From assembly GCA_045125935.1 (NCBI GenBank), contig JBGVNW010000056.1, positions 64,715 to 128,714 of the forward strand: a DNA stretch of 64,000 nucleotides, read 5' to 3'. The translations under genes and the position numbers were made by a program. Below, in pieces: positions 32,708 through 53,576 of this stretch; within the stretch, counting starts at the first letter, position 1; every line of letters starts with the position of its first letter. The notes beneath the pieces were generated by a model. That model saw nothing but the letters and a program-made list of their open reading frames with translations, was not told where the DNA came from and did no database searches. The stretch comes from Bacilli bacterium. GTDB lineage: Bacteria > Bacillota_I > Bacilli_A > RF39 > UBA660.

Positions 32708-32710
32708 AAT

Positions 32711-37057: not shown

Positions 37058-37495
37058 GTGGTAGCTATGATAGATTTTCAAAGATTAAAAGATATTAGAG
37101 AAGATAATGATATAAATCAAGAAACAATGTCACAAATACTTGGTGTACCTCGTTCTACTTATTCAATGTGGGAACTAGGTATAAGTGTTATTCCTTTAAA
37201 ACCTTTATGTGACTTTTCAGATTATTTTAATATTACTTTAGATTATGCTTTAAATAAGACTAGTAAGAATTTAATTAAAGGTTTAGATTTACAAGTTCTT
37301 GCTAATAATATGAAAGAAATTAGAAAGAAAAATAATTTATCACAAGAAAATATAGCAGATATTCTTAATGTTACTCAAAGTTGTATAGTTAAATATGAAA
37401 AAGGTAGAGTTTATATATCGACAGAAAACTTATATAAATTTGCTAAAGAATTTAAAATCTCTATAAATGAATTATGTGGAAAAACAAAAAAATAG
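37058..37495 (+). CDS. XRE-family regulator with two tandem HTH domains
   Basis: INQETMSQILGVPRSTYSMWELG and LSQENIADILNVTQSCIVKYEKG. Confidence 0.75.
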   Translation: MVAMIDFQRLKDIREDNDINQETMSQILGVPRSTYSMWELGISVIPLKPLCDFSDYFNITLDYALNKTSKNLIKGLDLQVLANNMKEIRKKNNLSQENIADILNVTQSCIVKYEKGRVYISTENLYKFAKEFKISINELCGKTKK

Positions 37496-37523
37496 TATGA
37501 AAATTTAGATCATACTATTTTTT
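37492..37523 (+). terminator. intrinsic terminator
   Basis: Stem atagtatga/tcatactat with a 9-nt loop, followed by ttttt. Confidence 0.65.
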
Positions 37524-37580
37524 ATGACGGAATGACAGATAAAAGTGGGTACCCATAAACTCCTGTCATTCTGTCATTTT

Positions 37581-38069
37581 TTATTTTTCTTTATTATTTT
37601 TTATATAAAATTCTTTTGCAAATTTTGAAGTATGTTTTATATTAGAATATATCATTAATCTATTAAATAATTGTGTAATCGCTAATAAACAAAATAATGC
37701 AATAATTATATAAATATTTTGGGTTATGTTTTCATTTATTTCTCTTAAGAAGATAACAGCTAGAAATCCAAGACCACTTAATATGATTGTTATTGCAGTT
37801 GCATCTCTAAATCCCCTTATCATTTTATCAGTTTCATTTTTTTCAGATTTTAAACCATCTACATCCCAATGCATAATTGATACTACATCAACAATTAAGA
37901 ATAATATTATAGCTATCCAATATAATCCATACATTAAATTAGTTCTTAATATTAATGTTAAAGTAAATATTATTGCCGTTAATATATCTACAATAATAGT
38001 TATAGTATTTATTACTTTATCATCAACATGAATAATTTTATAAGTAATTTTATCTATTATCTTCTTCAT
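37581..38069 (-). CDS. membrane protein (4 TM) co-transcribed with the repressor
   Basis: MKKIIDKITYKIIH starts at 38069 and overlaps the 3' end of the XRE gene by about 20 nt. Confidence 0.45.
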   Translation of the reverse strand: MKKIIDKITYKIIHVDDKVINTITIIVDILTAIIFTLTLILRTNLMYGLYWIAIILFLIVDVVSIMHWDVDGLKSEKNETDKMIRGFRDATAITIILSGLGFLAVIFLREINENITQNIYIIIALFCLLAITQLFNRLMIYSNIKHTSKFAKEFYIKNNKEK

Positions 38070-38571
38070 TTTTATCTTTCTCCCTTTCTCTAAAGTCATC
38101 TACATTAGTATTTAATAGTAATCTTTCAATTTCTTTAGCAGTTTTAATTTGATATTCTGTATCTTCTACTGTTTGTTCCATTATTTCTCTTTCTTGTGGT
38201 GATAAATTTTCATCTTTTAATTTTTCTTCAAAAGATTTAATTAGTTTTTCCCAAGTTCTTATGCTTCCTGAAGTATTAGCAAGTGCTTCTTGTATTTCTT
38301 CTCCTTTAAGACTTTTATAATAACTTTTCAAAAAAGGATTTAAATCTGTGACTTGAAAACCTAAACCTGCAGCATACATTAAATCATTATAATTTATTCC
38401 GATATGTTGACTAATTTTTCTTAATATTTTAGGATTAGGAACCTCTCTTTCTCCTGATTCAATTCTTGATATATCTGAATGACTTACTTTTGCAAGTTCG
38501 GCTAATTGTCTCATAGAAAGATTCTTTTCTTCACGACCTTTTTTTATTAGTTCTCCAACCTTTGTTGTCAT
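38050..38571 (-). CDS. XRE-family repressor with extended C-terminal helical domain
   Basis: RBS AAAGGAG precedes MTTKVGELIKKGREEKNLSMRQLAELAKVSHSDISRIESGE. Confidence 0.75.
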   Translation of the reverse strand: MTTKVGELIKKGREEKNLSMRQLAELAKVSHSDISRIESGEREVPNPKILRKISQHIGINYNDLMYAAGLGFQVTDLNPFLKSYYKSLKGEEIQEALANTSGSIRTWEKLIKSFEEKLKDENLSPQEREIMEQTVEDTEYQIKTAKEIERLLLNTNVDDFREREKDKNEEDNR

Positions 38572-38594
38572 ACGAATTACTCCTTTCACAAACG

Positions 38595-38623
38595 ATTATA
38601 ACACTTATGGAGCAAAATTGCAA
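38595..38623 (-). promoter_or_regulatory. near-consensus sigma-A promoter for the repressor gene
   Basis: On the minus strand: TTGCAA (38623-38618), a 17-nt spacer, then TATAAT (38600-38595). Confidence 0.6.
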
Positions 38624-38652
38624 CATTTTTAAAGAAATTGGTGCTAAAATGC

Positions 38653-38680
38653 TTGACATACATTTTTGATATGCTATAAT
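38653..38680 (+). promoter_or_regulatory. near-consensus sigma-A promoter for the rightward (replication/mobilization/recombinase) operon
   Basis: TTGACA (38653-38658), a 16-nt spacer ending in TGc, then TATAAT (38675-38680). It is followed by the inverted repeat GTTGCAC-N15-GTGCAAC (38689-38717). Confidence 0.6.
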
Positions 38681-38894
38681 GGTGTTAAGTTGCACCAGAG
38701 ATAAAAACAAGTGCAACGAAAAATTGTTCTTTGAAAATTTAGTCTTTGTGGAAATCGCCGATATGCTATAAAGTAAAAAAATGCAAGGCTAGATATCTCT
38801 ATTGGCATGAGAGTTGTTGGTATTACTAAAACCATCCATAGATAGATTGCTTAACAAGTATCTATAAACATCAATTAAGAAAGCGAGGTAATAA

Positions 38895-39125
38895 ATGAAT
38901 CCAAACGAAATATTAAAAGTAATTTCAAAACAATGGTGTTCTCTTGAAGATTTAAAAAAATTAACAGGTTTAGGAAAAAATAATTTATTAAAATTAAAAC
39001 GAGATATTAAAAACAATTTAAATAATAACTCTATTCCTAATAAATTACTTCCTATGAATGAAGTTGTTAAATATCTAAATATTGATATAGATTATTTAAA
39101 AAAACTTGATAGAAAGGAGGAATAA
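38895..39125 (+). CDS. small HTH-like protein (regulator or excision-directionality candidate)
   Basis: 76 aa. CSLEDLKKLTGLGKNNLLKLKRDIKN is HTH-like. It is the first ORF of the rightward operon, and its stop abuts the RBS of the next gene. Confidence 0.4.
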   Translation: MNPNEILKVISKQWCSLEDLKKLTGLGKNNLLKLKRDIKNNLNNNSIPNKLLPMNEVVKYLNIDIDYLKKLDRKEE

Positions 39126-39126
39126 A

Positions 39127-40080
39127 ATGCTAACGATAAGTGAAGTTAAAAAAAATTACACAAAAAAAGATTTCATAGTTGATAGCTTTATGAAATCTAG
39201 TGGGATATACTGTTTAGTTGCAAGACCTAAAGTCGGCAAGTCATTATTCGGACTACAACTTGCTGACTCAATCGCAAACGGAACAACATTTCTAGGATTT
39301 AAAACAAATCCATCTCCTGTCTTATATATTAGCACAGAAATGAGTTCAATGCAAATATGTGAGCGAATTGAAAAGATGAATTTACACTTTACTGATGATA
39401 ATTTTTTCATAGAAGATCAAGCATCAAAAGATAGAAAACTTAATCATATGGACTTACAATTAGTTTTTCAAGACTTTGCTCTTAATCATAATGGTAAGTT
39501 TATTATAGTTGATATGTTTACTGGTGTTGATGTTAATAATGGTTATGATTTAAATAATTATCAAGATATAAATCAATATGTATTTCCAAAATATAGAGAG
39601 TTATGTCAAAAATATGGATTTACAATATTATTAATTCATCATTTAAATAAGAATAATACTTCATTAGGAAGTACTGCTATAGATGGTGCTGTTGATGGAA
39701 TAATCACTCTAAAAAAAGATAATAATTATCCAAACAAATTATTTTTAAAATACGACAGCAGAGATTATCCAGAGATGGAATTAGTTTTAAAAAGAAATGA
39801 CAATTTAATATATGAAATATCAGAACTAGAAAAAACAGATTTACCACAAGAAATAAAATTATTTTTAAATTATGCAATTAGAAAAAAAGAATTTGAATTT
39901 ACAGCTAGTGAGATTGTGAGTACTCTAAACTTAATGATTGAACCATCAGCATTTGGAAGATTATTAAGTAATCATTTAGATGTTCTTGAAAAAGAAGGAC
40001 TTTATATTACTGATGCGAGAAAATCTGATAAAAGAAGAAAACATGCATTGTATGAAGAACCAATATTTGAAAATGAATAA
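39127..40080 (+). CDS. RecA-fold AAA ATPase (RepA/DnaB-C-terminal-like)
   Basis: RBS AGGAGGAA precedes the ATG at 39127. Walker A ARPKVGKS and Walker B-like FIIVDMF, followed by LLIHHLNK. Confidence 0.6.
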   Translation: MLTISEVKKNYTKKDFIVDSFMKSSGIYCLVARPKVGKSLFGLQLADSIANGTTFLGFKTNPSPVLYISTEMSSMQICERIEKMNLHFTDDNFFIEDQASKDRKLNHMDLQLVFQDFALNHNGKFIIVDMFTGVDVNNGYDLNNYQDINQYVFPKYRELCQKYGFTILLIHHLNKNNTSLGSTAIDGAVDGIITLKKDNNYPNKLFLKYDSRDYPEMELVLKRNDNLIYEISELEKTDLPQEIKLFLNYAIRKKEFEFTASEIVSTLNLMIEPSAFGRLLSNHLDVLEKEGLYITDARKSDKRRKHALYEEPIFENE

Positions 40081-40324
40081 TTTTCATAAAAGTTTTTGTT
40101 AACTTTTTTCTAAAAAGTTATATAAGTAAAAAATGAGTGTGGCACGTTTTGTTGCTTTAGCAATGAAAGTGGCGATAACGAATATTTTTACAATTATTAA
40201 ATGTAGTTTATCTACTTTTAATAATTCATTAAATAATAAGTATCTAGTAGATAGTTATTATTTAATCTTGTTTATAGCATTTGCCTTTACGATTAGTTTA
40301 GGCATTTGTGAAGAACAAGCATAA

Positions 40325-40394
40325 GGGGTCTTTAGGGGAATCACCTAAACTCACGATTGGGCTATGCCCTAGTGAGATAGGTCTAAAAGACCTC
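40325..40394 (+). promoter_or_regulatory. candidate oriT: long imperfect compound hairpin upstream of the MobV gene
   Basis: The outer stem is ggggtctttag (40325-40335) with ctaaaagacctc (40383-40394). The inner stems are ctcac (40350-40354) with gtgag (40372-40376), and gggc (40359-40362) with gccc (40366-40369). It ends 36 bp before the mob start. Confidence 0.35.
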
Positions 40395-40429
40395 TTTTAC
40401 AAAGATGCAATAACGAAAGGAGGCAAAAA

Positions 40430-41869
40430 ATGTATGACGGAAATCAAGTTGTTCGAGTAGTAAGTAAATATAAAAAACATGATGCTTATAATATTGGAGT
40501 TGAAATGAGTGAAAGAAAAGGAACAGGAAATTATGATAAAGAAAGAACACAATTTAATGTTGAATATGTTTCACTTAATGAAAAAAATTTATATCAAGAA
40601 ATAAAACAAACGCTAAAAAATAGGAATATTGAATTTAATGATAAACCCTCTACCAATATGTTTAATGGAATAACATTCTCAAGTGGACCTGAATTTTTTG
40701 AAACACTTGGAATGAAATTTGTAGATAGTGGTAGAACTTATCATGAAGGTAAAAAGAAAGGTCAAATTGTAAAAATACCAGAGATCAAATCTAAAGAAGA
40801 TATACCTAAAACTGTATCATATTATTTTGATTCTTGTATGGACTTTCTAAAAGATTATGTTGGTGAAGAAAATATCCTTTTAGCACAAATTCATTATGAT
40901 GAAGATACACCTCATCTTCAAGTATATTTTCTACCTATTGTTGATACTGTAAAAAGAAAACAATATGTAAAAGACAAAGATGGTAATGTTGTTAAAGAAA
41001 AACATGTAAATGCTAATGGAAATATAAATTATACACCTAAACTACTTCGAGATGAAAATGGTAAAATTATATATTCAGAAGTTAAAGGAAAATTTCTAAA
41101 TTGTGATGAGTTTTGGAAACAACGAGGTGGTCAATATTCTTTTGGTAAATTACAAGATGAGTTTAATGATTTTATAACAAAACGAGGTTTTAATTTATAT
41201 CGTGGAGATATTGGAAGTAAAGTAGAAAATCAAACTAAAACTGAGTGGCAAATTAAAGAATTAAATGCCGAATTAGAAGAATTAAAGCAAGAAAAAGAAA
41301 ATGTATTAAGAGTAATAGAAAACTCTAAAAATGGGCTTGAAACAGCTAATAAATCTAATGATAAAGATACTCTACTAAATCCCACTAAAAGAAAACTTGG
41401 AGGATATAAAGAAGAAGATGTAAATAAGATTATTGATTATACCAAAGACTTAAAAAAACAAGTTGTTGTTTTAAACACAGATAATAAAAATAAAGATATT
41501 GAAATAAACAAATTATTAAAAGAAAATAATACTTTTAGAAACAATAAGGAACTCATAAAAAGAAATGAGCTTATTAAAGAACAAAAATCTACTATTAAGG
41601 AACAAAAACAGGAAATAAATAGATTAAATGATGTTATTGATATATTGAATAATCAAATAGAAAATTTACAAGCAAAATTTGATAAATTCAAAGAAAAAAT
41701 GTATAACTTCTGCAATAAAATTTGCAGAGCATTGGCTCATAAGATTGGACTTCATTATGATAAAGATGATGATATTAATTACTATGAAATGGAAAGTTAT
41801 GCATATGACATCAATAGAAAATACGATAAAGAAAAAGATAAATCTGATGATTTTGAAATTGGAATGTAA
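40430..41869 (+). CDS. MobV-family (Mob/Pre) relaxase
   Basis: 479 aa. AQIHYDEDTPHLQVYFLPI is the HxDE...PH motif of Mob_Pre relaxases. The C-terminus is a long coiled coil. Confidence 0.8.
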   Translation: MYDGNQVVRVVSKYKKHDAYNIGVEMSERKGTGNYDKERTQFNVEYVSLNEKNLYQEIKQTLKNRNIEFNDKPSTNMFNGITFSSGPEFFETLGMKFVDSGRTYHEGKKKGQIVKIPEIKSKEDIPKTVSYYFDSCMDFLKDYVGEENILLAQIHYDEDTPHLQVYFLPIVDTVKRKQYVKDKDGNVVKEKHVNANGNINYTPKLLRDENGKIIYSEVKGKFLNCDEFWKQRGGQYSFGKLQDEFNDFITKRGFNLYRGDIGSKVENQTKTEWQIKELNAELEELKQEKENVLRVIENSKNGLETANKSNDKDTLLNPTKRKLGGYKEEDVNKIIDYTKDLKKQVVVLNTDNKNKDIEINKLLKENNTFRNNKELIKRNELIKEQKSTIKEQKQEINRLNDVIDILNNQIENLQAKFDKFKEKMYNFCNKICRALAHKIGLHYDKDDDINYYEMESYAYDINRKYDKEKDKSDDFEIGM

Positions 41870-42097
41870 TTAATAAATTCTCTCTCTTAAACTATAAGTA
41901 GCAATAACTATATATAAAATATAAATATTATAAATTTTAAAAAAATTGAAAAATGTACCAAAATTTTATCCCTAAGTATAAAGAAGTAAAAACGAAAGTG
42001 AGGATTGATATTATGAATAAAACAAAGTACAAAAATAATAAACATTACTGCTATATTAGTTTAAAATCACACTTTAAATAATATATTTAAATTAGAG

Positions 42098-42238
42098 GTG
42101 AGCTTTATAAATATAGTCTATAATGTTAAAGAAGTAGTAAATAAAACTATAACCGATAACGATTTAAAAGAGATTATAAATAAAAAGTTGTTAAATATTA
42201 TATTATTTATGGAAACTTGCACAAATGAGTGTAATTAA
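42098..42238 (+). CDS. possible 46-aa ORF upstream of the IME recombinase
   Basis: Own translation from GTG: VSFINIVYNVKEVVNKTITDNDLKEIINKKLLNIILFMETCTNECN. The RBS-like AGAGGTG overlaps the start codon, so the start is doubtful. Confidence 0.2.
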   Translation: MSFINIVYNVKEVVNKTITDNDLKEIINKKLLNIILFMETCTNECN

Positions 42239-42309
42239 ATGGTATAATTGTATTGGTTATAAGTTTAACTTGATAAGTAATTATTGCCTTAAGTTAGGAG
42301 GTAATAGTT

Positions 42310-43923
42310 ATGAATGAAATGGAGAGTGTTAGAGAGAAGATATTATTAAGAGTTGTTATTTATTTAAGATTATCAAATGAAGATAGAGATAAAATTAATA
42401 AAGATGATGATAGTGAATCTATTAAAAATCAAAGAAATATGTTGCTAGATTATATCGATAAAAATCCACAATTTATGTTGGTTGATGAATATTGTGATGA
42501 AGATTTATCGGGGGCTGGTACTTATAGACCTGAATTTGAAAGATTAATTAGAGATTGTGAAAATGGGAAAATTGATGTAGTTTTATGTAAAAGCCAATCT
42601 AGATTTTCAAGAGATATGGAAATCGTTGAAAAGTATATTAACAATAAATTCAAAGAATGGAATATAAGATTTATCGGTTTATCTGATAATGCTGATACTG
42701 ACAATAGCGGTAATAAAAAATCAAGACAAATAAATGGATTAGTTAATGAATGGTATTTAGAAGATGTTTCAGATAATATTAGAAGTGCTTTTAATTCAAA
42801 AATGAAGCAAGGAGAATTCATTTCTCCTTTCGCCTCATTTGGTTATGAAGTATCTAAAGAAGATAATAACAAGTTAGTTGTTGATCCTGTTGCTAGTGAA
42901 GTTGTTAAAGAAATATACGATTTATATTTAAAAGGTATGGGATTTACTGGAATAGCTCATTACTTAAATGATAAAAATATTCCTTGCCCCTCTCTTTATA
43001 AATATAGAAAAGGTATTAAATTAAATGTAATTAGTAATAGACCTAGAGAGGAAATTAAATGGAATACAAATGCTATTAAAACAATATTAAAAAATGAATT
43101 ATATTTAGGACATTTAATTCAAGGAAAAAGAACTACCGTTAGTTATAAAAATCATAAAGTAATTAATAAACCTGAAGATAAATGGATTCGTAGAGAAAAT
43201 ATGCACGAAGCTATAATTGATGAGGAAACATTTGCAAAAGTTCAAATTGCTTTGAAAGAAAGAACAAAACCTATGAAATCAACAGGAATTGTTCATAACT
43301 TCTCTGGCAAAGTATTTTGTAAAGAATGTGGTCGCTATATGAGAAAAAAGAATTCTTCTAAACATGAATATCTTGTATGTTCTAATAACAGAGATGGTTA
43401 CAATGATTGTATAAATAAAGCAGCGATTAGGTATGATGCTTTAGAGGAATTAGTATTAAGTCATATTAATAAAAAAGTTAAAAAGTTTTATGATTTAAAT
43501 ATTTTAGAAACAGAATCTTTGAAAAAAGAAAATAATAAGTTCACTAAAAGAATTAATTTATTAACAAAACAAAAAGAGACCATAGTTAATCAAATGGCAA
43601 AGACTAAAAATTATTTAAAAAATCTTTATGAAGATAAAGTTAATGGAATAATTAATGCAGAACAATTTAAAGAATTAATTACTAATTATAATAATGATGA
43701 TGAAAAGTTAAAAGACCAATTAAAATCTATTGAAAATGAGATTAACTATTATACACTAAAAGAATCTTCAAATAAAAATACAAAAGAATTATTTAATAAA
43801 TATCAACAATTAGAAAAATTAAACAGAGTTATAGTAGATGAATTTGTAGATAAAATCTATATCGGCAAAATCAATGAAGAAACAAATACAAGAGATATTG
43901 AAATTAAATGGAATTTTGAATAA
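42310..43923 (+). CDS. large serine recombinase (IME integrase)
   Basis: 537 aa with RBS AGGAGG. VVIYLRLSNEDRD, NQRNML and LCKSQSRFSRD form the resolvase domain. A zinc-ribbon region (CKECGRY...CSNN) and a C-terminal coiled coil follow. Confidence 0.9.
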   Translation: MNEMESVREKILLRVVIYLRLSNEDRDKINKDDDSESIKNQRNMLLDYIDKNPQFMLVDEYCDEDLSGAGTYRPEFERLIRDCENGKIDVVLCKSQSRFSRDMEIVEKYINNKFKEWNIRFIGLSDNADTDNSGNKKSRQINGLVNEWYLEDVSDNIRSAFNSKMKQGEFISPFASFGYEVSKEDNNKLVVDPVASEVVKEIYDLYLKGMGFTGIAHYLNDKNIPCPSLYKYRKGIKLNVISNRPREEIKWNTNAIKTILKNELYLGHLIQGKRTTVSYKNHKVINKPEDKWIRRENMHEAIIDEETFAKVQIALKERTKPMKSTGIVHNFSGKVFCKECGRYMRKKNSSKHEYLVCSNNRDGYNDCINKAAIRYDALEELVLSHINKKVKKFYDLNILETESLKKENNKFTKRINLLTKQKETIVNQMAKTKNYLKNLYEDKVNGIINAEQFKELITNYNNDDEKLKDQLKSIENEINYYTLKESSNKNTKELFNKYQQLEKLNRVIVDEFVDKIYIGKINEETNTRDIEIKWNFE

Positions 43924-44056
43924 AATTCAAAAATAAAAAAGGAAATTCAAAACTTTTGTAGAATAATATAAGTGAGAGGTTATACACTTCTATAACCTTT
44001 TGCTTAATACATATTTTAATACATATTAAAAATATATAGTAAAGGATGGTGAATAA

Positions 44057-44914
44057 ATGAAACAAGATAATATGCATTTAATTAATAAAATATTTAACAA
44101 TGAAACAATTAGAACTATTTGGGATAAGGATGAAGAAAAATATTATATTAGTATCGTTGATATTGTTGGTGTTTTAGCTGATAGTAAAGAACCTAGAAAA
44201 TATTGGAATTGGTTAAAAAATAAGTTATTAAAAGAAGAAAATTTTGAAACGTCTAGTATTACTAGACAGTTGAAATTAAAAGCTACTGACGGTAAATATC
44301 GTATGACTGATGTTTGTGATATTGAAGGTATGTTTAGAATAATTGAATCTGTGCCTAGTAAAAATGCTGAACCTATAAAACAATGGTTAGCTCATTTAGG
44401 TAAAGAAAGAATTGATGAAGTGTTTGACCCATCATTAACAATGCAAAGAGCAATAGATACATATCGTGCTAAAGGTTATGATGAGGCATGGATTTCTAAA
44501 AGAATTAAAGGCATTCAAGAAAGAAAAAGATTAACTGATGTTTGGAAAGATGGAGGCGTTGAAAAAACTCGCGAATATGCAATGCTTACTAATGAAATAT
44601 ATAAAAGTTGGTCAGGTATGAAAGCAAATGAATACAAACAATTTAAAGGAATTAGAAAAGAATCTTTACGAGATAATATGACTGATATAGAAGTTCTACT
44701 TACTGATTTAGGCGAAATCGCTACTCGTGATATAGCAGAATCTGAACATCCACAAGGATTTAAAGAAAATATGAAAGTAGCTCGTAAAGGTGGACAAGTT
44801 GCTAATGATGCTAGAAAATCTTATGAGAAAGCAATTAAAAAATCGGCTATATCAAATCAAAATGCTTTAAATTATCAATATATAGATGATAAAAAACAAA
44901 TAGAAAATAAATAA
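44057..44914 (+). CDS. Bro-N-domain protein
   Basis: 285 aa. FNNETIRTIWDKDEEKYYISIVDIVGVLADSKEPRKYW fits the Bro-N pattern. It lies between the recombinase and the right end. Confidence 0.55.
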   Translation: MKQDNMHLINKIFNNETIRTIWDKDEEKYYISIVDIVGVLADSKEPRKYWNWLKNKLLKEENFETSSITRQLKLKATDGKYRMTDVCDIEGMFRIIESVPSKNAEPIKQWLAHLGKERIDEVFDPSLTMQRAIDTYRAKGYDEAWISKRIKGIQERKRLTDVWKDGGVEKTREYAMLTNEIYKSWSGMKANEYKQFKGIRKESLRDNMTDIEVLLTDLGEIATRDIAESEHPQGFKENMKVARKGGQVANDARKSYEKAIKKSAISNQNALNYQYIDDKKQIENK

Positions 44915-45049
44915 CTCTGTTCCCGACAATTTGTCGGAAAGTAATAAAAATCTTAAAAATACAAGTTAAACATAAAAAAGCGAAATTTTAAAAGCCTTAT
45001 TTTTCAAGGCTTTGATAAGGTATTAGTGTCTACATTATATTCGTAGAGT

Positions 45050-45211
45050 TGCTTTAATTAGGACACTAGCAATGAAACCGGATATATTACTTTTGGATGA
45101 GCCAATGTCTGCGTTAGATTCTCAGTCAAGACTTGCAATTAGTGATGACATATATAAAATTATCAAAAAAGAAGGTAAAACTGCTGTTATGGTTACACAT
45201 GATATTGCTGA
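45050..45211 (+). pseudogene. ABC importer ATPase, fragment 2 of 3 (Walker B to H-loop)
   Basis: ALIRTLAMKPDILLLDEPMSALD...GKTAVMVTHDIAE. It is only 162 nt and is bounded by two different elements. Confidence 0.9.
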
Positions 45212-45261
45212 GACAATCTTCTTAATTAACATAAATGTTTTATAAAAAAAAAGAAGATTTC

Positions 45262-46800
45262 TTATTCTTCGTAAAATTTTATATTTATTATTTCGACCTT
45301 ACCTTTTACTTTATCTCTATCTTTATTTACTACAACTATTTCTTCTATAAAATTTGTTAAAAAATCAAATTTTTCTTTATTAGATAGATATTTCCAATGT
45401 TCTTTTATTGTTTTGGGAATTTTTACATTATCTTTATTTTGTTTAGGTAATATAACTTTTTCCAATCTATCAATTTCTTCTTTTAATCTTTGACTTTTCT
45501 TATTTAATTCATCAGTCATATATTTTAATTGTTTATCAGTTATTTTATTTATCATGAATAAGTCCATTACTTCTTTCTTTTTTGCGGATGTTTGGCCAAG
45601 AAATTTTTTTAAAGTTTTTAATTCTTCTATTTCAGCATCATTTTCTTTAATTTCAACTTTGTCTATTTCAGTTAATGCTTCAATATTATTTATATAATTC
45701 ATAAATGCTTTCTCTACTTTAGAATGACTCATCCCCAAACAGATGCATAATTTCTTTTCTCTATTAATACATCGATAGCTATTGAAGACCATTTTTGTTC
45801 CGTCTTTTTTATTTTTATTTGTCCTACTACTGGTTAATTTTTTTCCACAAAGTCCACAAACTAGTGTTCCACAATAATAAACGTCTTCCTTAGGAAGATT
45901 GGTACGATGTGACTTTTTTATTTTATGAATTTTCTCTTGAACTTGATACCATGTTTTTTTAGAAATGATTGGTTTATGTTTTCCATCTGTAATAAGTTCA
46001 TCTTCTTTTCCTATATGATATCTTACTTTTCCTATATATGTAGGATTAGTTAAAATGAGACGAATTGTTTTAGGTACCCATATACTATTAATAGTATATT
46101 TTTTACCTGTTTTACGTTGTTTTACTACTCTACCGGCATTTTTAGTAGGAATTTTTTCCGCATTTAAAATATTACATATTTCTGTAAAGCTTTTGCCTTC
46201 TATATACATTTTAAAAATACGTTTTACTATTTTCGCTTCAGCTTGATTAATTGTCTGCTCTTTTTCATGTATTTTACGATTATAGCCATAACATGTTGTG
46301 GCACAAGCTAGTGTATAACCTTGTTTTACTTTTTCCTCAAGTGCTACTTTTATTCTTTCAATTGTTTGTTCTCTTTCTAGCTGCGCTACTGCACCATTAA
46401 TTCTGACTGAAAATCTGCCTGTTGCGGTAGAAACATCTACTGTTCCTCCAGCTAGTGTAAATACTTGTATTCCATATTGCTGTATTAATTCAATTATATT
46501 TTCCGTATCTTTGCTATCACGTGTTAATCTGTCAAATTTATATAATACAACTACATCAATTTCTTTTTTTTGAATATCATTGATTAGTCTTTTTACCGCT
46601 GGTCTATCTTTAATATTTTTTCCACTTTTACCTTCATCGGCATATATATCAAATATTTTAAAGCCTTGCTGCTTGGCAAATTTACTTAAATTTTCTTTTT
46701 GTGCAGAAACAGAATATCCTTCTTTTACTTGTTTTTCAGTTGATACACGTATGTATAAACCAGCATTTATTAATTTTTCTGTAATAATAGATTCCTCCAA
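45262..46800 (-). CDS. large serine recombinase (mini-element integrase)
   Basis: 512 aa. AGLYIRVSTEKQ, YSVSAQ and VLYKFDRLTRD form the resolvase domain. A Cys-rich zinc ribbon (CGLCGKK...CINREKKLC) and a coiled coil follow. The TTG start lies 4 nt after the stop of the 32-aa ORF. Confidence 0.9.
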   Translation of the reverse strand: MEESIITEKLINAGLYIRVSTEKQVKEGYSVSAQKENLSKFAKQQGFKIFDIYADEGKSGKNIKDRPAVKRLINDIQKKEIDVVVLYKFDRLTRDSKDTENIIELIQQYGIQVFTLAGGTVDVSTATGRFSVRINGAVAQLEREQTIERIKVALEEKVKQGYTLACATTCYGYNRKIHEKEQTINQAEAKIVKRIFKMYIEGKSFTEICNILNAEKIPTKNAGRVVKQRKTGKKYTINSIWVPKTIRLILTNPTYIGKVRYHIGKEDELITDGKHKPIISKKTWYQVQEKIHKIKKSHRTNLPKEDVYYCGTLVCGLCGKKLTSSRTNKNKKDGTKMVFNSYRCINREKKLCICLGMSHSKVEKAFMNYINNIEALTEIDKVEIKENDAEIEELKTLKKFLGQTSAKKKEVMDLFMINKITDKQLKYMTDELNKKSQRLKEEIDRLEKVILPKQNKDNVKIPKTIKEHWKYLSNKEKFDFLTNFIEEIVVVNKDRDKVKGKVEIINIKFYEE

Positions 46801-46804
46801 ACTT

Positions 46805-46903
46805 TTATTTCTTTAGCATTTTAGGTATTGATGTTTTCCAAAAAAATTCTATCATTTTGATTTGAAGTTTTTTAGGAAGAATAATTTTATCTTTATTTTT
46901 CAT
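46805..46903 (-). CDS. 32-aa ORF translationally coupled to the recombinase
   Basis: Own translation MKNKDKIILPKKLQIKMIEFFWKTSIPKMLKK, with RBS AGGTGA. Confidence 0.35.
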   Translation of the reverse strand: MKNKDKIILPKKLQIKMIEFFWKTSIPKMLKK

Positions 46904-46992
46904 TTTTCACCTACTTAATTTTATGTGGTGATTTTTAATAAATTGTAAAAAAACAGTTCTTTTATTTAGAACTGTTTAATACTATTTAAAAA

Positions 46993-48486
46993 TTAATTTT
47001 CTTCTGGAATATCTTCTTCGTCGTTATCTTCATCTTTCTTGCTATCTATATATATTTTAGTACTTATTCCAGCTACTGCGGCTAAGCCTATACCTTCTAA
47101 AAATGGACCTGTTTCAATTTTTCTTGTTCCTGGTTTTTCATTTATTCTAGGTATTACATAATCGTTTTCGCTAGTTTTACTAGTTGTTGTATTTTCATAG
47201 CTACTTGCAATTTTACTTAGGCTTCCTGCTAAAGCCATTGAATTTTTATTGAAACTTTCTGTTGGGCTTTGAGTAGTTGTCTGATTATCAGTTAAATTAT
47301 TTGCTATAAAATTATTTATTTTTTCTCCTAGTAAAGTCAGGTTATTAGTGTTATTAGTTGTTGTTTGTGTTTGAGTTGTTTGAGTATTATCACTAAATGA
47401 GAAAGTTGAACTTATATTTGACTTTATTTCTGAAATTTTCTCAGTAGCTGGATTATTTGTGAGTGTATCTTTTATTTCTGAAAGTTTTTCAGTAACCGGA
47501 TTATCAATAATTGCGTCTTTTATAACGTCTGTAAGTGATTTTTCGGTGCTTGCACTTACAGATGTTAAACTAGTCGGTACTGATAAAGTTGTTTGGCCAC
47601 CATTTGATTGACTGGCACTAATCATTGTTTTTCCTGTTGTATGTGAACTAATACATGCTTCATCATTGCAGTATCCAACATGATGATATTCTCCATCCTC
47701 ATGCCATGCTGTATAGATATCATACCAAACCTCTACATCGCCTTCTGCAGTTCCTTTGAGCTCTCCTTTTCTGACCATTTCTGCCATCCCGCATAGGTCT
47801 ACTACCATTCCTGTTCCAAGGCTTGTTTCAACAAGATCCCCTTTTCTGTACTCAGCAGCTTGCTCAGTTCCGTCCATATGGGGAATATCTGCAGCGACCA
47901 TGACGTAGTCACCATACATATATACTCCGTCTTCTCGTATCCAGAAATCTAAATCAATTCCTTGTTTTCTCATAAGTGTTGCTAAGTTACTTGGATCTAA
48001 GTCACACCAAGTTTCTTTAGTTAATCTACCATCTGCGCCATAATATTTAATACTTCCTACGGCCGCAGTAAGAAAATTAGAATCCCATTTTGGATTTACT
48101 CCATATTTTTCGTAATATTCATCTAATGTATAATTTATTCTTTCTTTATCCAAATTATATCTTCTTGCGGTATTAGGATCTGCAATAATTATTGCATCAT
48201 CACCCAAAATTACTTTTCCATCATTGTACTTTTCAAGTTCTCTAGTTATAACACTAATTGTATTTTGCATTTGTTCTACTGCCGAAGATACTACATCACC
48301 TTTTTCTATATAAGGAATACCTCGATTGTAGCCTGAACTATTAATTCTAGAAATTCCGCGTTCGATTTTCTTTGATATATCTTCAAGGATGTCTTGGGCA
48401 TCTTCAAGTTTTTCTATTCCTTGTTCTACATAAGCAGGTATATAAACTATTTGATCCTTATTTATCAAATTGATTACACTATTCAT
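46993..48486 (-). CDS. 497-aa multi-domain protein: helical N-terminus, central globular domain, Thr/Ser/Asn-rich linker, C-terminal TM + acidic tail
   Basis: It has no Sec signal. The N-terminal ~95 aa are helical. The central region (about 100-290) has VAADIPH...GDLVETSLGTGMVVDLCG...VEVWYDIY, faintly like a 3D/double-psi-barrel fold. TTQTQTTTNNTNN is low complexity. The TM is GPFLEGIGLAAVAGISTKIY, followed by DEDNDEEDIPEEN. Confidence 0.6.
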   Translation of the reverse strand: MNSVINLINKDQIVYIPAYVEQGIEKLEDAQDILEDISKKIERGISRINSSGYNRGIPYIEKGDVVSSAVEQMQNTISVITRELEKYNDGKVILGDDAIIIADPNTARRYNLDKERINYTLDEYYEKYGVNPKWDSNFLTAAVGSIKYYGADGRLTKETWCDLDPSNLATLMRKQGIDLDFWIREDGVYMYGDYVMVAADIPHMDGTEQAAEYRKGDLVETSLGTGMVVDLCGMAEMVRKGELKGTAEGDVEVWYDIYTAWHEDGEYHHVGYCNDEACISSHTTGKTMISASQSNGGQTTLSVPTSLTSVSASTEKSLTDVIKDAIIDNPVTEKLSEIKDTLTNNPATEKISEIKSNISSTFSFSDNTQTTQTQTTTNNTNNLTLLGEKINNFIANNLTDNQTTTQSPTESFNKNSMALAGSLSKIASSYENTTTSKTSENDYVIPRINEKPGTRKIETGPFLEGIGLAAVAGISTKIYIDSKKDEDNDEEDIPEEN

Positions 48487-48499
48487 AGTTATCTTCTCC

Positions 48500-48802
48500 T
48501 TACAATTCTTTCTCTTCTTGACTTCTTAACCATGCCATATATTCTTCATATTGTGCTTGGGCATTTGCTCTTATTGTTGTAGTTACACCGTCATTTATTT
48601 GGCTACACTTTTGAACTTGAGTTTTTAATAAATCAAGTTCTGCATCAAGTGAGGAGTTGATATCACCAAATTGTAAATTATTACAATTTAAAAGACTCAT
48701 GGCATTATCAATGCCACTTTTTACATTATTAAACATCTCTATTGCATTATCTATTTCTGAACAACCTGCTTCTACTGCTGCTAAATCAACATACTGTGCC
48801 AT
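48500..48802 (-). CDS. WXG100-like ~100-aa helical-hairpin protein (motif degenerate: QFGD)
   Basis: 100 aa with two predicted helices either side of NLQFGDINSSL. It lies 13 nt upstream of the 497-aa gene. Confidence 0.5.
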   Translation of the reverse strand: MAQYVDLAAVEAGCSEIDNAIEMFNNVKSGIDNAMSLLNCNNLQFGDINSSLDAELDLLKTQVQKCSQINDGVTTTIRANAQAQYEEYMAWLRSQEEKEL

Positions 48803-48826
48803 TTTATCACATCCTTATATACTTAC

Positions 48827-48856
48827 TTTATTATTCTTTATTATTCTTTATTATTA
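48827..48856. repeat. 10-bp tandem repeat x3 in the 5' leader of the WXG100-like gene
   Basis: tttattattc, tttattattc, tttattatta. It sits between the putative promoter (TTGACC on the minus strand) and the RBS. Confidence 0.6.
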
Positions 48857-48977
48857 TTTTAACATTTTTATGGTCAAGTGAAAATATTTAATTTTTATTT
48901 GTTATATTTAAGTGTAAATTTTAACTAAATTGTTTCTATTTTGACATTTTGGTTATGCTTATAAAAACTATTGGTGA

Positions 48978-49149
48978 GGCTATAAGTATGTCAGATAAAA
49001 TTGTTGTTTTATCTAAGAGGCCAGCTATTGTAAAGAACATTTATGAAATTGAATTAGATAATAAATCTACTCCTATTAATAATCGTAGTTCTAAAAACTT
49101 TTCTTCATACTATGAAGCGATTTGGAGGGATTTAGATGTCCATATCTAG
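48978..49149 (+). pseudogene. ABC importer ATPase, fragment 3 of 3 (C-terminal)
   Basis: AISMSDKIVVLSKRPAIVKNIYEI... The fragments of 416, 162 and 172 nt sum to 750 nt, or 250 codons. Confidence 0.9.
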
Positions 49150-49969: not shown

Positions 49970-51124
49970 TTAAACTGTTAGTTTATATGTTTCATCAGAA
50001 CTTGCGAAAGCTTGTCTATCAGTATTTTCTGTTCCGTTATATACATTTGTCATATCTCTTATAGAATATCCCCCACTATTTAACTCAGCATATGATCTGT
50101 AATTTAATACAATACCAGCTTCTGAACCTCGGGCTTCTGCTACTACGAAACGATTATTTTCTGGATCGTTTTCTATAATCATACCAACATGCCCACTACT
50201 TACCATTACATCACCAGGTTGGGCTTCTGACCAATTCTGATATGCTATGCTTTCTCCAACATAGTTAAAGTCAGTAACTGGTCTCCATTGAAATCTATTA
50301 GGCGTTCCCTTATCTACACAGTAAGAGGTCCATGGATTACAATCTACTCCGTTCATTACATATGCTGTGCTTACATACGGATTTGAGTTTGTTCCTTGGT
50401 GTTTATAGTCGAGTTTAACACCTTTATCAGCTGCTAGTTTCAATAAGGTTAGCGCAGTATTTACTGCTGCTTCTCTTCCAGTATATGTATTTTGAATTGT
50501 ATTTAATATACTTGTGATGTATTGAAAACCTGAGCCCTCTACGACATTTCCGTTTTCATCAACTTGGTTGTAGAATGAATCTAGAGTTGCATTTCCTTTA
50601 AGTTGTATTAATAAATTTTTACCTGCCGCTTTTTCTTCAGCAGTAAGTATATGGTCATATGCTGCCAATAGTTCACTAATACCTGTTACATAATTGAATT
50701 CAACATTGTAATTTACTAACGTAGTAGACGTTCCTACTGGTGTAACTTGAGCTAATATTCCCTCTATTTGAGTCCTTAAATTTTGATTTTCTTGTTCTAA
50801 TTGACTAATTTGGCTCTGGATAGAAGCTCTCTCACTAGCATTCTTTTCATTATCAGGAATACACATTAATTGAAATTTTAGTTTGGCTATTTGTTCCTTA
50901 TTTTGTTTATACTTATTCAGTAAATCTAATGCATCGAAGAAGCCACTTAATTTTGCTCTTTCTGCATTTAATTTGTTTACAACATTAGATAGTGCTGAAA
51001 CTAGTGCTGTTGCAGCTGATCCAGACCAAATTAAATCAAATGCAATATTTCCAATACTTTTTTGTGTACTTTCTAAATTAGTAGATTCATTTTTTCCATT
51101 TGTGGCAGTTTGACTATAACTCAT
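49970..51124 (-). CDS. WXG-type N-terminal domain fused to an NlpC/P60 peptidoglycan endopeptidase
   Basis: 384 aa with no Sec signal. It has FDLIWSGSAATAL (WxG), then a coiled coil. The C-terminus has GVDCNPWTSYC (Cys) and GDVMVSSGHVGMII (His). Confidence 0.7.
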   Translation of the reverse strand: MSYSQTATNGKNESTNLESTQKSIGNIAFDLIWSGSAATALVSALSNVVNKLNAERAKLSGFFDALDLLNKYKQNKEQIAKLKFQLMCIPDNEKNASERASIQSQISQLEQENQNLRTQIEGILAQVTPVGTSTTLVNYNVEFNYVTGISELLAAYDHILTAEEKAAGKNLLIQLKGNATLDSFYNQVDENGNVVEGSGFQYITSILNTIQNTYTGREAAVNTALTLLKLAADKGVKLDYKHQGTNSNPYVSTAYVMNGVDCNPWTSYCVDKGTPNRFQWRPVTDFNYVGESIAYQNWSEAQPGDVMVSSGHVGMIIENDPENNRFVVAEARGSEAGIVLNYRSYAELNSGGYSIRDMTNVYNGTENTDRQAFASSDETYKLTV

Positions 51125-51141
51125 AATGTATTTCTCCTAAC

Positions 51142-51408
51142 TTATTGATTTTCAGCCGTGTTTACAATTTCGATTAACATGTTTTCAATATTTTTCATTT
51201 TATTATGATATTCTTTTCCATCCGCAACTAAATCATTAGTTACATTTGTAAATCCATCAGCAGCATTTCCTTTCCAGTACTCATTTAATGTTTTAACCTC
51301 TTGTTGTATTGAATCCATAATATCAATTGCATCATTGTTTAACTGAGTCATTTTAGCTCCCCAGGCTTGTAAAACGTCTTTTTCAATGTATGTATACGGA
51401 TCATTCAT
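51142..51408 (-). CDS. WXG100 (ESAT-6/EsxA-like) protein
   Basis: 88 aa from the ATG at 51408, after AAGGAGGA. It has a central EYWKGNAADGF, a canonical WxG followed by AAxxF. Confidence 0.75.
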   Translation of the reverse strand: MNDPYTYIEKDVLQAWGAKMTQLNNDAIDIMDSIQQEVKTLNEYWKGNAADGFTNVTNDLVADGKEYHNKMKNIENMLIEIVNTAENQ

Positions 51409-51412
51409 TTTA

Positions 51413-51706
51413 TTATCCTCCTTGAGTATAAGCTTGCTCATGTTCAGCAGCACATCTTGCTTTTTCTTTTAACTTCATTACATTATAAGAAAGCTTTAAT
51501 GATCTATTGTTATGGATTGTCATATATCCGTTACAGGTATTATTGAATGCTTCTTTCATAGCAGTATCTTTCCATGATGGCGAACTGTAAATATTATCGA
51601 TTAGACTTTGAATTTCCTCTAATTTACTATTGTAATTATCAATTAAATTTGTTAATCTTGTCGCGCTTGCTGTCATCTCTTCTGGAACGTGTTTATATTT
51701 ACCCAA
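51413..51706 (-). CDS. WXG100-like small helical protein (SWKD variant)
   Basis: About 97 aa from TTG 51706, with RBS AGGAGA 7 nt upstream. The alternative ATG is 51676. It has a central SPSWKDTAMKEAF. Confidence 0.5.
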   Translation of the reverse strand: MGKYKHVPEEMTASATRLTNLIDNYNSKLEEIQSLIDNIYSSPSWKDTAMKEAFNNTCNGYMTIHNNRSLKLSYNVMKLKEKARCAAEHEQAYTQGG

Positions 51707-51761
51707 AAAATCATCTCCTAGAAAAAAAACTTTTTGTAAGCATGTTATAAAAAGTTTTAAA

Positions 51762-52043
51762 TTATTCAGTTTCCATTGTATTCGCAATGGCAATTATATC
51801 GTTTGCTGATTTTATAACTTGTCCATATGTTAGTTTGAACATACTTCTAAATTGATCTAATTCAGCTCTTAACTCTGCTGGTTTTCTATTTCCTTGATAA
51901 ACTGCTGTATCAACATTATCAATTTTTTCTATTTCTCTTGAAACGTTATTTAGTAATGATTCTAATTCATTTGCGATTGTTTTCATTCTTGTTGCTTTTG
52001 CCCTAGCTTCCGCAGGGTTAACTATCATTCTTCCGTCTGCCAT
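51762..52043 (-). CDS. WXG100-like small helical protein (YQG variant)
   Basis: 93 aa with RBS GGGAGG. It is a helix-turn-helix hairpin with a central AVYQGN. Confidence 0.55.
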   Translation of the reverse strand: MADGRMIVNPAEARAKATRMKTIANELESLLNNVSREIEKIDNVDTAVYQGNRKPAELRAELDQFRSMFKLTYGQVIKSANDIIAIANTMETE

Positions 52044-52063
52044 GTATATAACCTCCCTATTTA

Positions 52064-52381
52064 TTATTCTAGTGGATTTCCACTATTAATTCTACTTTGA
52101 AGATATGCTTCATCACTATCAATATTTTGTGCGCGATTTTTCATTAATTCTGCACATTCATTAAAAGTTGTTTCATATTTTAAATACTCTCCTTTTTGTG
52201 CCTGAAAAGTATTTAAGAAATCTGAAGATAATCCTCCTTTAAATTGTGATGATCCTGCAAAGTCTTCTACTAGTGAATATAATGTACGTATTAAGCTACC
52301 ATAATCACCAGAATTACTATCCATTGTAGTTGACCAATTTCTCATTTGATCTGTGTCGTGACTTACTATTCCTGTCGCCAT
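52064..52381 (-). CDS. WXG100-like small helical protein (FKG variant)
   Basis: 105 aa with RBS GAGGAGG and a central SQFKGGLSSDF. Confidence 0.5.
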   Translation of the reverse strand: MATGIVSHDTDQMRNWSTTMDSNSGDYGSLIRTLYSLVEDFAGSSQFKGGLSSDFLNTFQAQKGEYLKYETTFNECAELMKNRAQNIDSDEAYLQSRINSGNPLE

Positions 52382-52460
52382 ATTTAAACCTCCTCTATTT
52401 TTTTATTATATCATCATATCATTTTATAAAAAACATTATTTACAAAAGATTACACTTAAT

Positions 52461-53576
52461 TTACTTATATCCATATCTATTTCCAGTTTCAGTTATCATA
52501 TTATCACTATATGATGTAGAGCCATTAGATCTATAGAACAGATAATCATGATTTCTTACTCCTGATAAGCAATCTGAAACGGCTTTACTTACAGTTTCTG
52601 TATAATTACCGTTTAACCTACTTTCGTAACTTCCTGAGTCATAAACAGCAAATTGTCCTGGTGCAGTTATTTGTTGAATTGGATTTCTAGAATATTTATT
52701 TACCCAATTAGATGTTTCACATCTGTTTAAAATTGTTGTTGTTACTGCTAACGCATCATCATAAGTACCATCACTTTCAGCAGCTACTACAGCACAAATC
52801 ATATCATAATCTGTACTTGATACTTCATATTTTAAATTTCCTGTTGTGACTTGAAATCCTTGATCAGTATTATTGTGATATACACTTAAATCAAGATCAG
52901 AATTAGAGTCTCCTGGCGATATAACAACGTTACCATAAGAGCTTATTTGTCCTAGTTCTGGATATACTACTGATGGTGACTGATAAACTGTCCTTTCAGT
53001 AATTTCACCACTTACATCACCTGTTTTTTGTGTGTTAGGATTTGTATTTACATATTCTGATGCCAGTATTGCTGCTGATTTAAATGTCCCTGTTGACACT
53101 GATTCCTCCGCATTATTACTTTTAATACCACTAATTAGGCCTGCTGCAAGTGTTACTGGTGTTGTTAGTCCATCAATAAAATCACCGGTAACTTCTTCTA
53201 AAGCATTGGCTATTTTTTTTGATGGGCTTAATATAGCTGCACTATACGATGTTGTTAAAAAATCCCCAACTTTTTCTGTTATTCTGTTTAAAGAAAATAC
53301 ACCGGTATCCGTACTAATATCATCTTGATCTAATGTTGCTATTCCATTGGTATAATCAGCTATATTTTTTGAAACATTTTTCATATCTGAGGCAATTGTT
53401 TTTAAATTACTACGTAATGTATTTCCTGCAGATGAAACGTCCATTCCATCATAATCACGTGCTTGTTTAATAATTGTATTCAACTGTCCTACTGAATCGT
53501 CCAACTGATCAGATAATGTTTTTAATTGATTAGATAAACTTGACAATTCATTAACGTCTGTAATTTCAGTCTGCAT
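52461..53576 (-). CDS. helical N-terminal (LXG-like?) domain fused to an SleB/CwlJ-type cell-wall hydrolase domain
   Basis: 371 aa with no Sec signal. The N-terminal ~100 aa are helical. The C-terminus has MICAVVAAESDGTYDDALAVTTTILNR...ITAPGQFAVY, typical of the Hydrolase_2 (SleB/CwlJ) family. Confidence 0.6.
   Translation of the reverse strand: MQTEITDVNELSSLSNQLKTLSDQLDDSVGQLNTIIKQARDYDGMDVSSAGNTLRSNLKTIASDMKNVSKNIADYTNGIATLDQDDISTDTGVFSLNRITEKVGDFLTTSYSAAILSPSKKIANALEEVTGDFIDGLTTPVTLAAGLISGIKSNNAEESVSTGTFKSAAILASEYVNTNPNTQKTGDVSGEITERTVYQSPSVVYPELGQISSYGNVVISPGDSNSDLDLSVYHNNTDQGFQVTTGNLKYEVSSTDYDMICAVVAAESDGTYDDALAVTTTILNRCETSNWVNKYSRNPIQQITAPGQFAVYDSGSYESRLNGNYTETVSKAVSDCLSGVRNHDYLFYRSNGSTSYSDNMITETGNRYGYK

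Follow-up and report, generated by a model that had tools for sequence, protein, structure and literature searches.

A 3.8-kb serine-recombinase element in an ABC ATPase gene of a Bacilli bacterium, and the two-gene operon that it holds

The element, its junctions and the interrupted ATPase gene

The DNA analyzed here (the window) is a stretch of 64,000 nucleotides from Bacilli bacterium (GTDB lineage Bacteria; Bacillota_I; Bacilli_A; RF39; UBA660; assembly GCA_045125935.1, contig JBGVNW010000056.1, positions 64,715 to 128,714 of the forward strand), and our subject is an insert of 3,766 bp within it, hereafter element B, which is bounded by TGAG at 45209-45212 and 48975-48978 and splits the gene of an ATP-binding cassette (ABC) ATPase. 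Element B has four open reading frames (ORFs), all on the minus strand: the gene of a large serine recombinase (LSR; 45262-46800, 512 amino acids [aa] when read from a TTG), a conserved ORF of 32 aa with its own Shine-Dalgarno sequence (46805-46903), and an operon in which a gene for a 100-aa protein (48500-48802) is followed by one for a 497-aa protein (46993-48486). The operon is preceded by a sigma-70-like promoter on the same strand (48850-48884; TTGACC/16 nt/AATAAT or TTTTCA/17 nt/TAAAAT) and closed by a terminator hairpin with a T-run (46951-46977, minus strand). No transfer, replication or resistance gene, and no oriT or relaxase, was found in element B; Rfam and tRNA scans inside it returned nothing, and megablast against phage and plasmid collections gave no match. 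An earlier note on this DNA, made from the letters alone, had given the same inventory of genes and the same absence of transfer, replication and resistance genes, and both descriptions hold.

The target gene lies in three pieces on the plus strand. Piece 1 (31813-32229; ABC_tran, 1.3e-17) runs from Walker A to the signature motif and ends in GGMRQRV; piece 2 (45051-45212; ALIRTL...THDIAE) is the left flank of element B, and piece 3 (48979-49149; AISMSDK...DVHI) its right flank. A second LSR element, element A, parts pieces 1 and 2, and element B parts pieces 2 and 3. Joined, the pieces encode a 249-aa protein that matches ABC_tran at 1e-26 and is colinear with solved ABC ATPases across both junctions (CmpD of a bicarbonate transporter, 1.2e-37). 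The gene is of the NrtD/SsuB type, and element B interrupts it at the codons T-H-D-I-A-E|A. In-silico removal of element B joins its flanks as ...THDIAE|AISMSDK..., and the ends that the earlier note had placed by the restored ATPase frame were right to within 4 bp, with TGAG at both. The uninterrupted site is seen directly in two related contigs (L001 and L005), where it reads GTTACxCATGATATxGCxGAAGCTATAAGxATG. Element B is thus a genuine LSR-bounded insert in the ATPase gene.

Read along the plus strand, the two flanks are ...GTTACACATGATATTGCTGAG|ACAATC... and ...CTATTGGTGAG|GCTATAAGTATG..., with the TGAG at 45209-45212 as the core of attL and that at 48975-48978 as the core of attR. Next to the cores lie a P' arm, ACAATCTTCTTAATTAACATAAAT (45213-45236, plus strand), homologous to the attL arms of the related loci L004 and L010, and a P arm, GGTTATGCTTATAAAAACTATTGG (48951-48974, plus strand), homologous to the P arms of L007-L010. 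The two 24-nt arms around TGAG form an imperfect inverted repeat, with 15/24 matches in the window (P=0.0011) and 20/24 in L010 (P=1e-7). Since this repeat is centered on xGAx, the geometry supports a crossover within the central GA, and GA as the crossover dinucleotide of element B appears well supported by the dyad symmetry. The reconstructed junction sequences are ...AAAAACTATTGGTGAGACAATCTTCTTAATT... for attP and ...CATGATATTGCTGAGGCTATAAGTATG... for attB.

The split gene is under purifying selection. Between the window and L004, dN/dS (the ratio of nonsynonymous to synonymous substitution rates) is 0.056 for ATPase pieces 1 and 2 together (151 codons) and 0.10 for the C-terminal piece (56 codons), the pieces have no frameshift or stop, and the permease gene that follows is likewise without frameshifts and has low dN/dS. 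Intact and constrained ATPase pieces suggest cycles of excision and integration, or turnover of occupied and empty alleles in the population, rather than an old, dead insertion.

As a separate observation, the arms extend the broken ATPase frame in a similar way across elements: after THDIAE they encode TIFLININVL, AIFIISITIY or VIFLISMTTSYGVV, each ended by a stop, among the elements of the window (45213-45245), L004 and L010. The P arm also offers an in-frame start to the C-terminal piece, a TTG at 48949 in the window (with an ATG two codons on) and an ATG in L010. The split gene could therefore in principle be expressed as two polypeptides.

The recombinase family and the inheritance of the operon

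The LSR matches the Pfam families Resolvase (7.9e-38), Recombinase (4.2e-25) and Zn_ribbon_recom (1.5e-6); its best NCBIfam matches, CcrB and XisF, all fall far below the cut-offs. Its closest solved relatives are the TP901-1 integrase (1.8e-23, with the catalytic motif YIRVST aligned), SPbeta SprA/YokA (3.8e-18, nearly full length) and the A118 integrase, and a search of the LSR in IMG/VR gave no match. TnpX and TndX, the recombinases of Tn4451 and Tn5397, use GA as their crossover dinucleotide, and the earlier note had compared the GA of the shared TGAG to it; the central GA stands on the dyad symmetry, but the protein is closer to TP901-1/SprA than to TnpX, whose match to it is 2e-5 and covers the catalytic domain only. 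The dN/dS of the LSR against that of L004 is 0.21, within the family range of 0.15-0.30.

An ORF of ~30-34 aa stands directly upstream of the LSR in every family member (L004, L007-L010 and L013-L016), with the core KMIEFFxxTSIPKM, tblastn identities of 59-76%, and dN below dS in most locus pairs for which dS could be estimated. It has no family match in Pfam or NCBIfam and is a candidate for a very small directionality or regulatory factor. Upstream of it is a promoter-like motif (46917-46949, minus strand; xxxACA, a spacer of 17-18 nt, CATAWW), and CATAnnnT occurs 20-29 nt before the ATG of the small ORF in 8/8 elements (the window and seven related loci). We take this motif to resemble the CATA-type -10 boxes of mother-cell sigma factors. 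A reading as a sigma-E or sigma-K promoter was kept only as a lead, since the motif fits a sigma-A promoter too.

The LSR has hundreds of relatives, and those with sequence context place element B among larger relatives; in other genomes, LSRs 57-75% identical to the window's occupy these ATPase codons. Among species-representative genomes, a scan gave four loci in metagenome-assembled genomes (MAGs; L007-L010; three labeled Bacilli bacterium and one binned as Muribaculaceae) with LSRs 57-64% identical to the window's, and in 4/4 the LSR lies between the same two pieces of the same ATPase gene. The element at this site measures ~8.2 kb in L010 and ~13.2 kb in L009. In L008, the 32-aa ORF and LSR adjoin the ATPase piece and are followed by 5.9 kb that include a second LSR gene, of the 537 type, which looks disrupted (its match is split into two pieces); in L007, ~200 bp separate the ATPase piece from the 32-aa ORF, with no cargo on that side, and the 6-kb contig did not show the far end. 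Of the relatives with context, L013 (LSR 74% identical) and L014-L016 (69%) are the closest. All of L009, L010 and L013-L016 carry a small resolvase and a RecA/UvsX-like ATPase, and most carry helix-turn-helix regulators, a DUF3846 protein and a protease that is ClpP-like (PHROG 'head maturation protease', 1.2e-50); a DnaB-type helicase is present in addition in L009, and in L013 and L014 the LSR is followed by a gene of 355-364 aa. The recurring accessory genes precede the 31/32-aa ORF, which the LSR follows; in full-size relatives, accessory genes fill 6-11 kb from the P arm to the recombination module.

Because relatives at the same site span 8-13 kb and carry phage- or plasmid-like modules, the window's element is best seen as a reduced member of the family. 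The same finding, with one of these elements free of cargo, largely goes against the minimal, self-integrating cassette of the earlier note. Compared to the LSRs of the full-size elements, those of the window and L004 are sisters, and both sit on long branches.

In element B the accessory-gene position, between the canonical P arm and the 32-aa ORF, is occupied by the two-gene operon, and among the elements examined only those of the window and L004 hold this pair (in the available sequence of L007, L008 and L010, tblastn found no match to the pair or to the cluster described next). In L004, the homologue of the 497-aa protein is 72% identical and the layout is that of the window. In three other related contigs (L001, L005 and L022; 54-65%), genes of 104-106 aa and 471-577 aa directly follow the 384-aa gene of a chromosomal cluster whose counterpart in the window lies at 49970-53576 (minus strand), 1 kb from element B and beyond the permease gene. 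No LSR is near the pair in these three contigs, and the element-B site is empty in L001 and L005; in these two, the pair ends 26 bp from the convergent permease gene, and the L022 contig ends just past the pair. In more distant relatives the pair is found among core genes, at two further positions: after a DUF4176 gene and beside ftsW in L019-L021 (49%), and between an NTP-transferase gene and ligA-gatCAB in L017 and L018 (~60% over the first 280 aa).

The unit held by element B corresponds to the whole chromosomal interval and not just to the two genes. Window positions 48903-46931 align at ~79% identity to all of the L001 sequence that separates the 384-aa gene from the permease gene, and the flanking chromosomal genes show the same identity; the promoter region is homologous to those upstream of the pair in L001 and L004, and the terminator hairpin to the one after the pair in L001.

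We asked of the phylogeny, by bootstrapped quartets and distances (unrooted), how the pair (1.2 kb) compares to five cluster genes (2.3 kb). Both give one topology, ((window, L022), (L004, (L001, L005))), with quartet bootstraps of 79-96% (cluster genes), 84-91% (pair) and 91-99% (both together). Since the topology of the pair is that of its chromosomal neighbors, the pair evolves with the chromosome, inside an element or not. Synonymous divergence between the window and L004 is also alike for genes of the element (0.59-0.78; 100-aa gene 0.59, LSR 0.76, 497-aa gene 0.78) and of the host (0.64-1.29; ATPase C-terminal piece 0.64, permease 0.68, ATPase pieces 1 and 2 1.05, 384-aa gene 1.29). Hence, the pair does not behave as the travelling cargo that the earlier note had seen in it: in L001, L005 and L022 it closes the cluster as the last operon, in L017 and L018 it is a core-chromosome pair, and its tree matches that of its neighbors.

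As to how the operon came to lie in the element, aberrant excision of the specialized-transduction type was rejected as a capture route; it is unlikely because both ends keep canonical P and P' arms and the operon sits internally, where cargo normally lies. Capture on one occasion, in an ancestor common to the window and L004, was rejected as well, since the host-gene quartets do not support it. A tandem duplication spanning the pair through to the P arm, after which the redundant copies and the old cargo were lost, would fit, and we put it forward purely by inference.

The cargo proteins and the neighboring cluster

The cargo proteins belong to families with no description that we could attach to them: neither rises above a family cut-off in Pfam, and neither has a match in NCBIfam or PHROGs. 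The 497-aa protein comprises a predicted helical hairpin (aa 17-88), a beta-rich domain, a linker and a hydrophobic C-terminal segment, and its 62 relatives have no family annotation over the shared region. An AlphaFold2 model (45 sequences) has usable confidence for residues 4-294 and disorder beyond. Its hairpin superposes on Staphylococcus aureus EsxA with a TM-score of 0.74-0.76 and a root-mean-square deviation of 2.3-2.4 A, at weak E-values (0.26-0.32) that many generic hairpins match; such hairpins dominate the Foldseek results, in which the central domain was never reported. The protein has no match to Pfam LXG or WXG100 and no signal peptide.

The beta-rich central domain (aa ~99-290; 47617-48190) has invariant D200, D230 and D256 and the motifs KETWxxL, WIREDG, YVMVAADxP, ETSLGTGxVxD and DIYTxW. 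Past it come a disordered linker rich in S, T and N, a hydrophobic Gly/Ala segment with a conserved AxxAGxGxKxYxD, and an acidic tail. The same domain is found at the C-terminus of DUF348-G5 and SH3_3 proteins and in membrane-anchored coiled-coil proteins on 35 IMG/VR contigs (L023-L057; 30-46% identity), one of which weakly matches phrog_20590 'peptidase'. A first guess, that it is a canonical 3D domain, was dropped because no profile supports it. Judged by these fusions, the central domain is probably an undescribed family of cell-wall hydrolases. It lies centrally, before the linker and hydrophobic tail, whereas a type VII effector of the LXG type would have a C-terminal toxin domain, and the operon has no immunity-like third gene. 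Of the effector-like protein that the earlier note had proposed, the signal-less, multidomain layout and an EsxA-like predicted hairpin remain, and the toxin domain and immunity gene that would go with the label were not found.

The 100-aa protein belongs to a very small family, with only 14 relatives after exhaustive HMMER searches and no match in JGI metagenomes. Its AlphaFold2 model consists of two helices, at 7-41 and 45-99 (predicted local distance difference test score, pLDDT, 74.7; predicted TM-score, pTM, 0.31), for which Foldseek gave no match. It has no W-x-G motif, its invariant loop being NNLxFGD, and it matches neither of the WXG100 profiles (PF06013/TIGR03930); hhalign of its family against the WXG-like small-protein families of the neighboring cluster gave probabilities <5%. 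The term 'WXG100-like' used for it previously thus describes its size and the two-helix prediction, not a family homology. Taken together, the structure and profile comparisons of the cargo gave the EsxA-like hairpin, with its weak E-values, and no WXG100, Pfam or PDB match, and Esx-like export of the 497-aa protein with the 100-aa protein as its partner is plausible on these predictions.

The chromosomal cluster 1 kb away is real and related in kind, as the earlier note had it. It encodes a 371-aa protein (weak SleB/Hydrolase_2 match), small proteins of 105, 93 and ~97 aa, an 88-aa WxG protein and the 384-aa protein. The WxG protein (51142-51408, minus strand; motif YWKG, TIGR03930 at 6.7e-7) is the only clear WXG100 member of the cluster; its ORF was called at 103 aa and probably starts at an internal ATG, which gives 88 aa, the length of its orthologues. 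When the three large cluster proteins were compared by BLASTP, no N-terminal domain common to them emerged. DUF4176, the family of the gene before the pair in L019, is one that is associated with type VII loci.

Interpretation, related systems and the other elements of the operon

We consider it probable, with a good deal of room for doubt, that element B is a reduced, chromosomally resident element of the TP901-1/SprA type that holds a host operon. Under this hypothesis, the whole family would insert at one site of the ATPase gene, with strand exchange at the central GA between imperfect inverted arms of ~24 bp. In the window and L004, the cargo bay would hold a 2-kb host unit (promoter, 100-aa gene, 497-aa gene and terminator) that in related lineages forms the last operon of the adjacent WXG100 cluster, 1 kb off past the permease gene, and that would evolve along with the chromosome instead of moving from genome to genome as a shuttle. 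The 497-aa protein would most likely be an exported, membrane-tethered cell-wall hydrolase, its N-terminal hairpin and the 100-aa protein probably pairing as in Esx-type four-helix bundles, and we infer type VII-like export for it. The recombination module is probably still active given that the LSR, the 32-aa ORF and the ATPase fragments are under purifying selection, and the LSR would accordingly still excise and re-integrate element B.

Several observations weigh against this hypothesis or parts of it. All comparison loci are metagenomic contigs, no same-species empty site was found for element B, and exact searches for attB in JGI metagenomes and for attP in IMG/VR returned none, with no circular form. 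The window LSR has ATT where all eight relatives have ATG, 5-7 nt past GGAGG; the only alternative start, a TTG, overlaps the ribosome-binding site (46786-46800). The true start is likely the ATT at 46788, which gives 508 aa as in the relatives, and with such a start the LSR may be poorly expressed. Further, the window and L004 are not neighbors on the host-gene tree (91-99% bootstrap), yet their LSRs are sisters, which requires at least two rearrangements (repeated or reversed) or exchange of the whole locus by homologous recombination. As for the cargo, the central domain has no Pfam or PDB profile match and its hydrolase activity is read from domain fusions only, and EssC, the type VII core protein, was not found in the scanned ORFs (those at 55.7-64 kb were not scanned) or in related loci.

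Alternatively, element B might be a domesticated gene-intervening switch like skin, SPbeta or gin, in which regulated excision by the LSR, helped by the 32-aa protein, restores the ATPase gene, for instance under particular conditions such as in a terminally differentiating cell, and in which the captured operon makes loss of the element costly. The low dN/dS of the split ATPase pieces and the similar dS of element and host would be expected of such a switch, as would the conservation of the LSR and the 32-aa ORF and the promoter-like motif in 8/8 elements; with genes for CotH in the window and for CotZ in L019, the host has the look of a spore-former, every sampled ATPase gene is split by at least one LSR element, and there is precedent in gin, which is excised by an LSR and is without phage-related genes (PMC5595907). 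However, the interrupted gene is that of a transporter and is not among the known sporulation genes, the CATA motif would suit a plain sigma-A promoter just as well, the larger family members have the appearance of ordinary elements derived from phages or plasmids, and population turnover of occupied and empty alleles could explain the purifying selection also. We therefore regard the switch as unlikely, and give similarly little credence to its extension, in which the mini-element would be a long-lived, vertically inherited switch whose retention is tied to the host through the cell-wall operon, and the ABC operon, which has taken three different LSR elements here and similar ones in relatives, a dedicated landing pad with genes that regulated excision keeps functional.

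It is also doubtful, to about the same degree, that element B is an inert remnant, fixed in place with an LSR that is not expressed or not active, in which case the ABC transporter would simply be inactivated. The ATT in place of an ATG start, the stripping of all accessory genes, the long branches of the window and L004 LSRs, and an ATPase gene hit by two elements beside a binding-protein gene hit by a third are all what a remnant would show. In contrast, the LSR ORF is full-length with a dN/dS within the family range, the 32-aa ORF is conserved, the symmetry of the att arms is kept, and the ATPase and permease genes are without frameshifts and at low dN/dS. Least probable of all, and to our minds quite unlikely, is an autonomous cassette that integrates itself and serves to carry a secretion-substrate/effector pair from one genome to another, since, for all that the LSR gene is intact, the att arms are symmetric, the pair is the only cargo and occurs in at least four genomic contexts across relatives (so that it relocates over evolutionary time), and an integrative and conjugative element (ICE) and a mobilizable element within 15 kb could give a ride, the pair is with an LSR only in the window and L004 and always at the same ATPase site, its tree is the chromosomal one with element dS comparable to that of the flanking host genes, the element lacks oriT, relaxase and replication gene, and phage, plasmid, IMG/VR and JGI searches gave no match.

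Compared to known systems, a resident, reduced element is in its mechanism a standard large-serine-integrase element. It shares the Resolvase/Recombinase/zinc-ribbon domain set with the TP901-1 integrase, SPbeta SprA/YokA and A118 integrase elements, together with the short att sites, imperfect dyad arms around a 2-bp core, and precise intragenic insertion, with the ORF restored in silico; it differs from them in its 3.8-kb size, the lack of phage, replication and transfer genes, the host-operon cargo and the 32-aa ORF before the integrase. Like Tn4451 and Tn5397, it combines a serine recombinase with a GA crossover dinucleotide, here assigned from symmetry; unlike them, it has no resistance gene, no mobilization (relaxase) gene was found, and the recombinase is not of the TnpX/TndX subfamily. 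Unlike integrative and mobilizable elements (IMEs), element B has no relaxase, and unlike cis-mobilizable elements (CIMEs), which lack a recombinase of their own, it has kept one. With such decayed or non-autonomous integrative elements it has in common the small size, the absence of conjugation functions and a place beside an ICE and a mobilizable element in an integration hot spot (PMC5704250).

As in skin, SPbeta and gin (in gerE), an LSR element splits a coding sequence that is kept intact in pieces (PMC5595907, PMC4191935). In skin, SPbeta and gin, the interrupted genes are sporulation genes and excision in the mother cell was shown experimentally (PMC5595907, PMC4191935), gin being a 31-gene element, none of them phage-related, that is excised by its LSR (PMC5595907), so that an element of this kind does not have to be a prophage; in contrast, the target of element B is an ABC ATPase gene.

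The earlier note had also supposed a previously undescribed kind of element, but mobile cassettes of a WXG100 protein with a toxin are known as the PEST cassettes of Mycobacterium prophages (PMC10654092). Element B is like these in having, on an integrated element, a ~100-aa protein predicted to be helical beside a larger protein with a predicted matching N-terminal helical domain. PEST cassettes have recognizable WXG100 motifs, a C-terminal toxin and an immunity gene and are carried on full prophages (PMC10654092), whereas the pair in element B lacks a WXG100 match and an immunity gene, has a hydrolase-like domain and a membrane tether, and is inherited vertically. A new class of effector-shuttling, self-integrating cassette is thus not supported.

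What the locus does offer is a promoter-to-terminator unit whose position, within the element or apart from it, differs between lineages, which bears on how small elements come to hold host genes. Further, an LSR family with a precise, conserved attB in an ABC ATPase gene and a 32-aa partner could serve integrase toolkits and the study of directionality factors, and a gene that stays under purifying selection while as many as two elements split it points to a possible reversible reconstitution beyond the classic sporulation genes.

Finally, the other insertions in this operon deserve description in their own right. Element A (32230-45050; 12.8 kb) ends 160 bp left of element B, and has the junction repeat AGAGTT. 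Its products are a Mob_Pre relaxase, an AAA_25/DnaB-like ATPase, a Bro-N protein and an LSR of 537 aa that ends in a DUF4368 tail (42310-43923); a block of long minus-strand ORFs within it (32763-36934) lay outside the family-library scans. In L001 and L005, its site holds a related element with a Fic/RhuM gene, and in L004 the site is empty, so elements A and B are independent. Upstream, a conjugative element of ~25 kb (~6022-31034) splits the gene of an NMT1-type substrate-binding protein of the same ABC operon into fragments at 5869-6021 and 31035-31820. It encodes a 519-aa LSR (6047-7606), a VirD4-like coupling protein, a VirB4-like ATPase and a MobA/VirD2-like relaxase, as well as a CHAP hydrolase, ParB and a thioester-domain adhesin, and contains an Rfam pemK RNA motif (8047-8126, minus strand; 38 bits vs. 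a gathering score of 34.8). With elements A and B in the ATPase gene and the conjugative element in the NMT1-type gene, one operon has received three LSR elements, and in L014 the NMT1 gene likewise holds a second LSR (520 aa), preceded by a 29-aa ORF.

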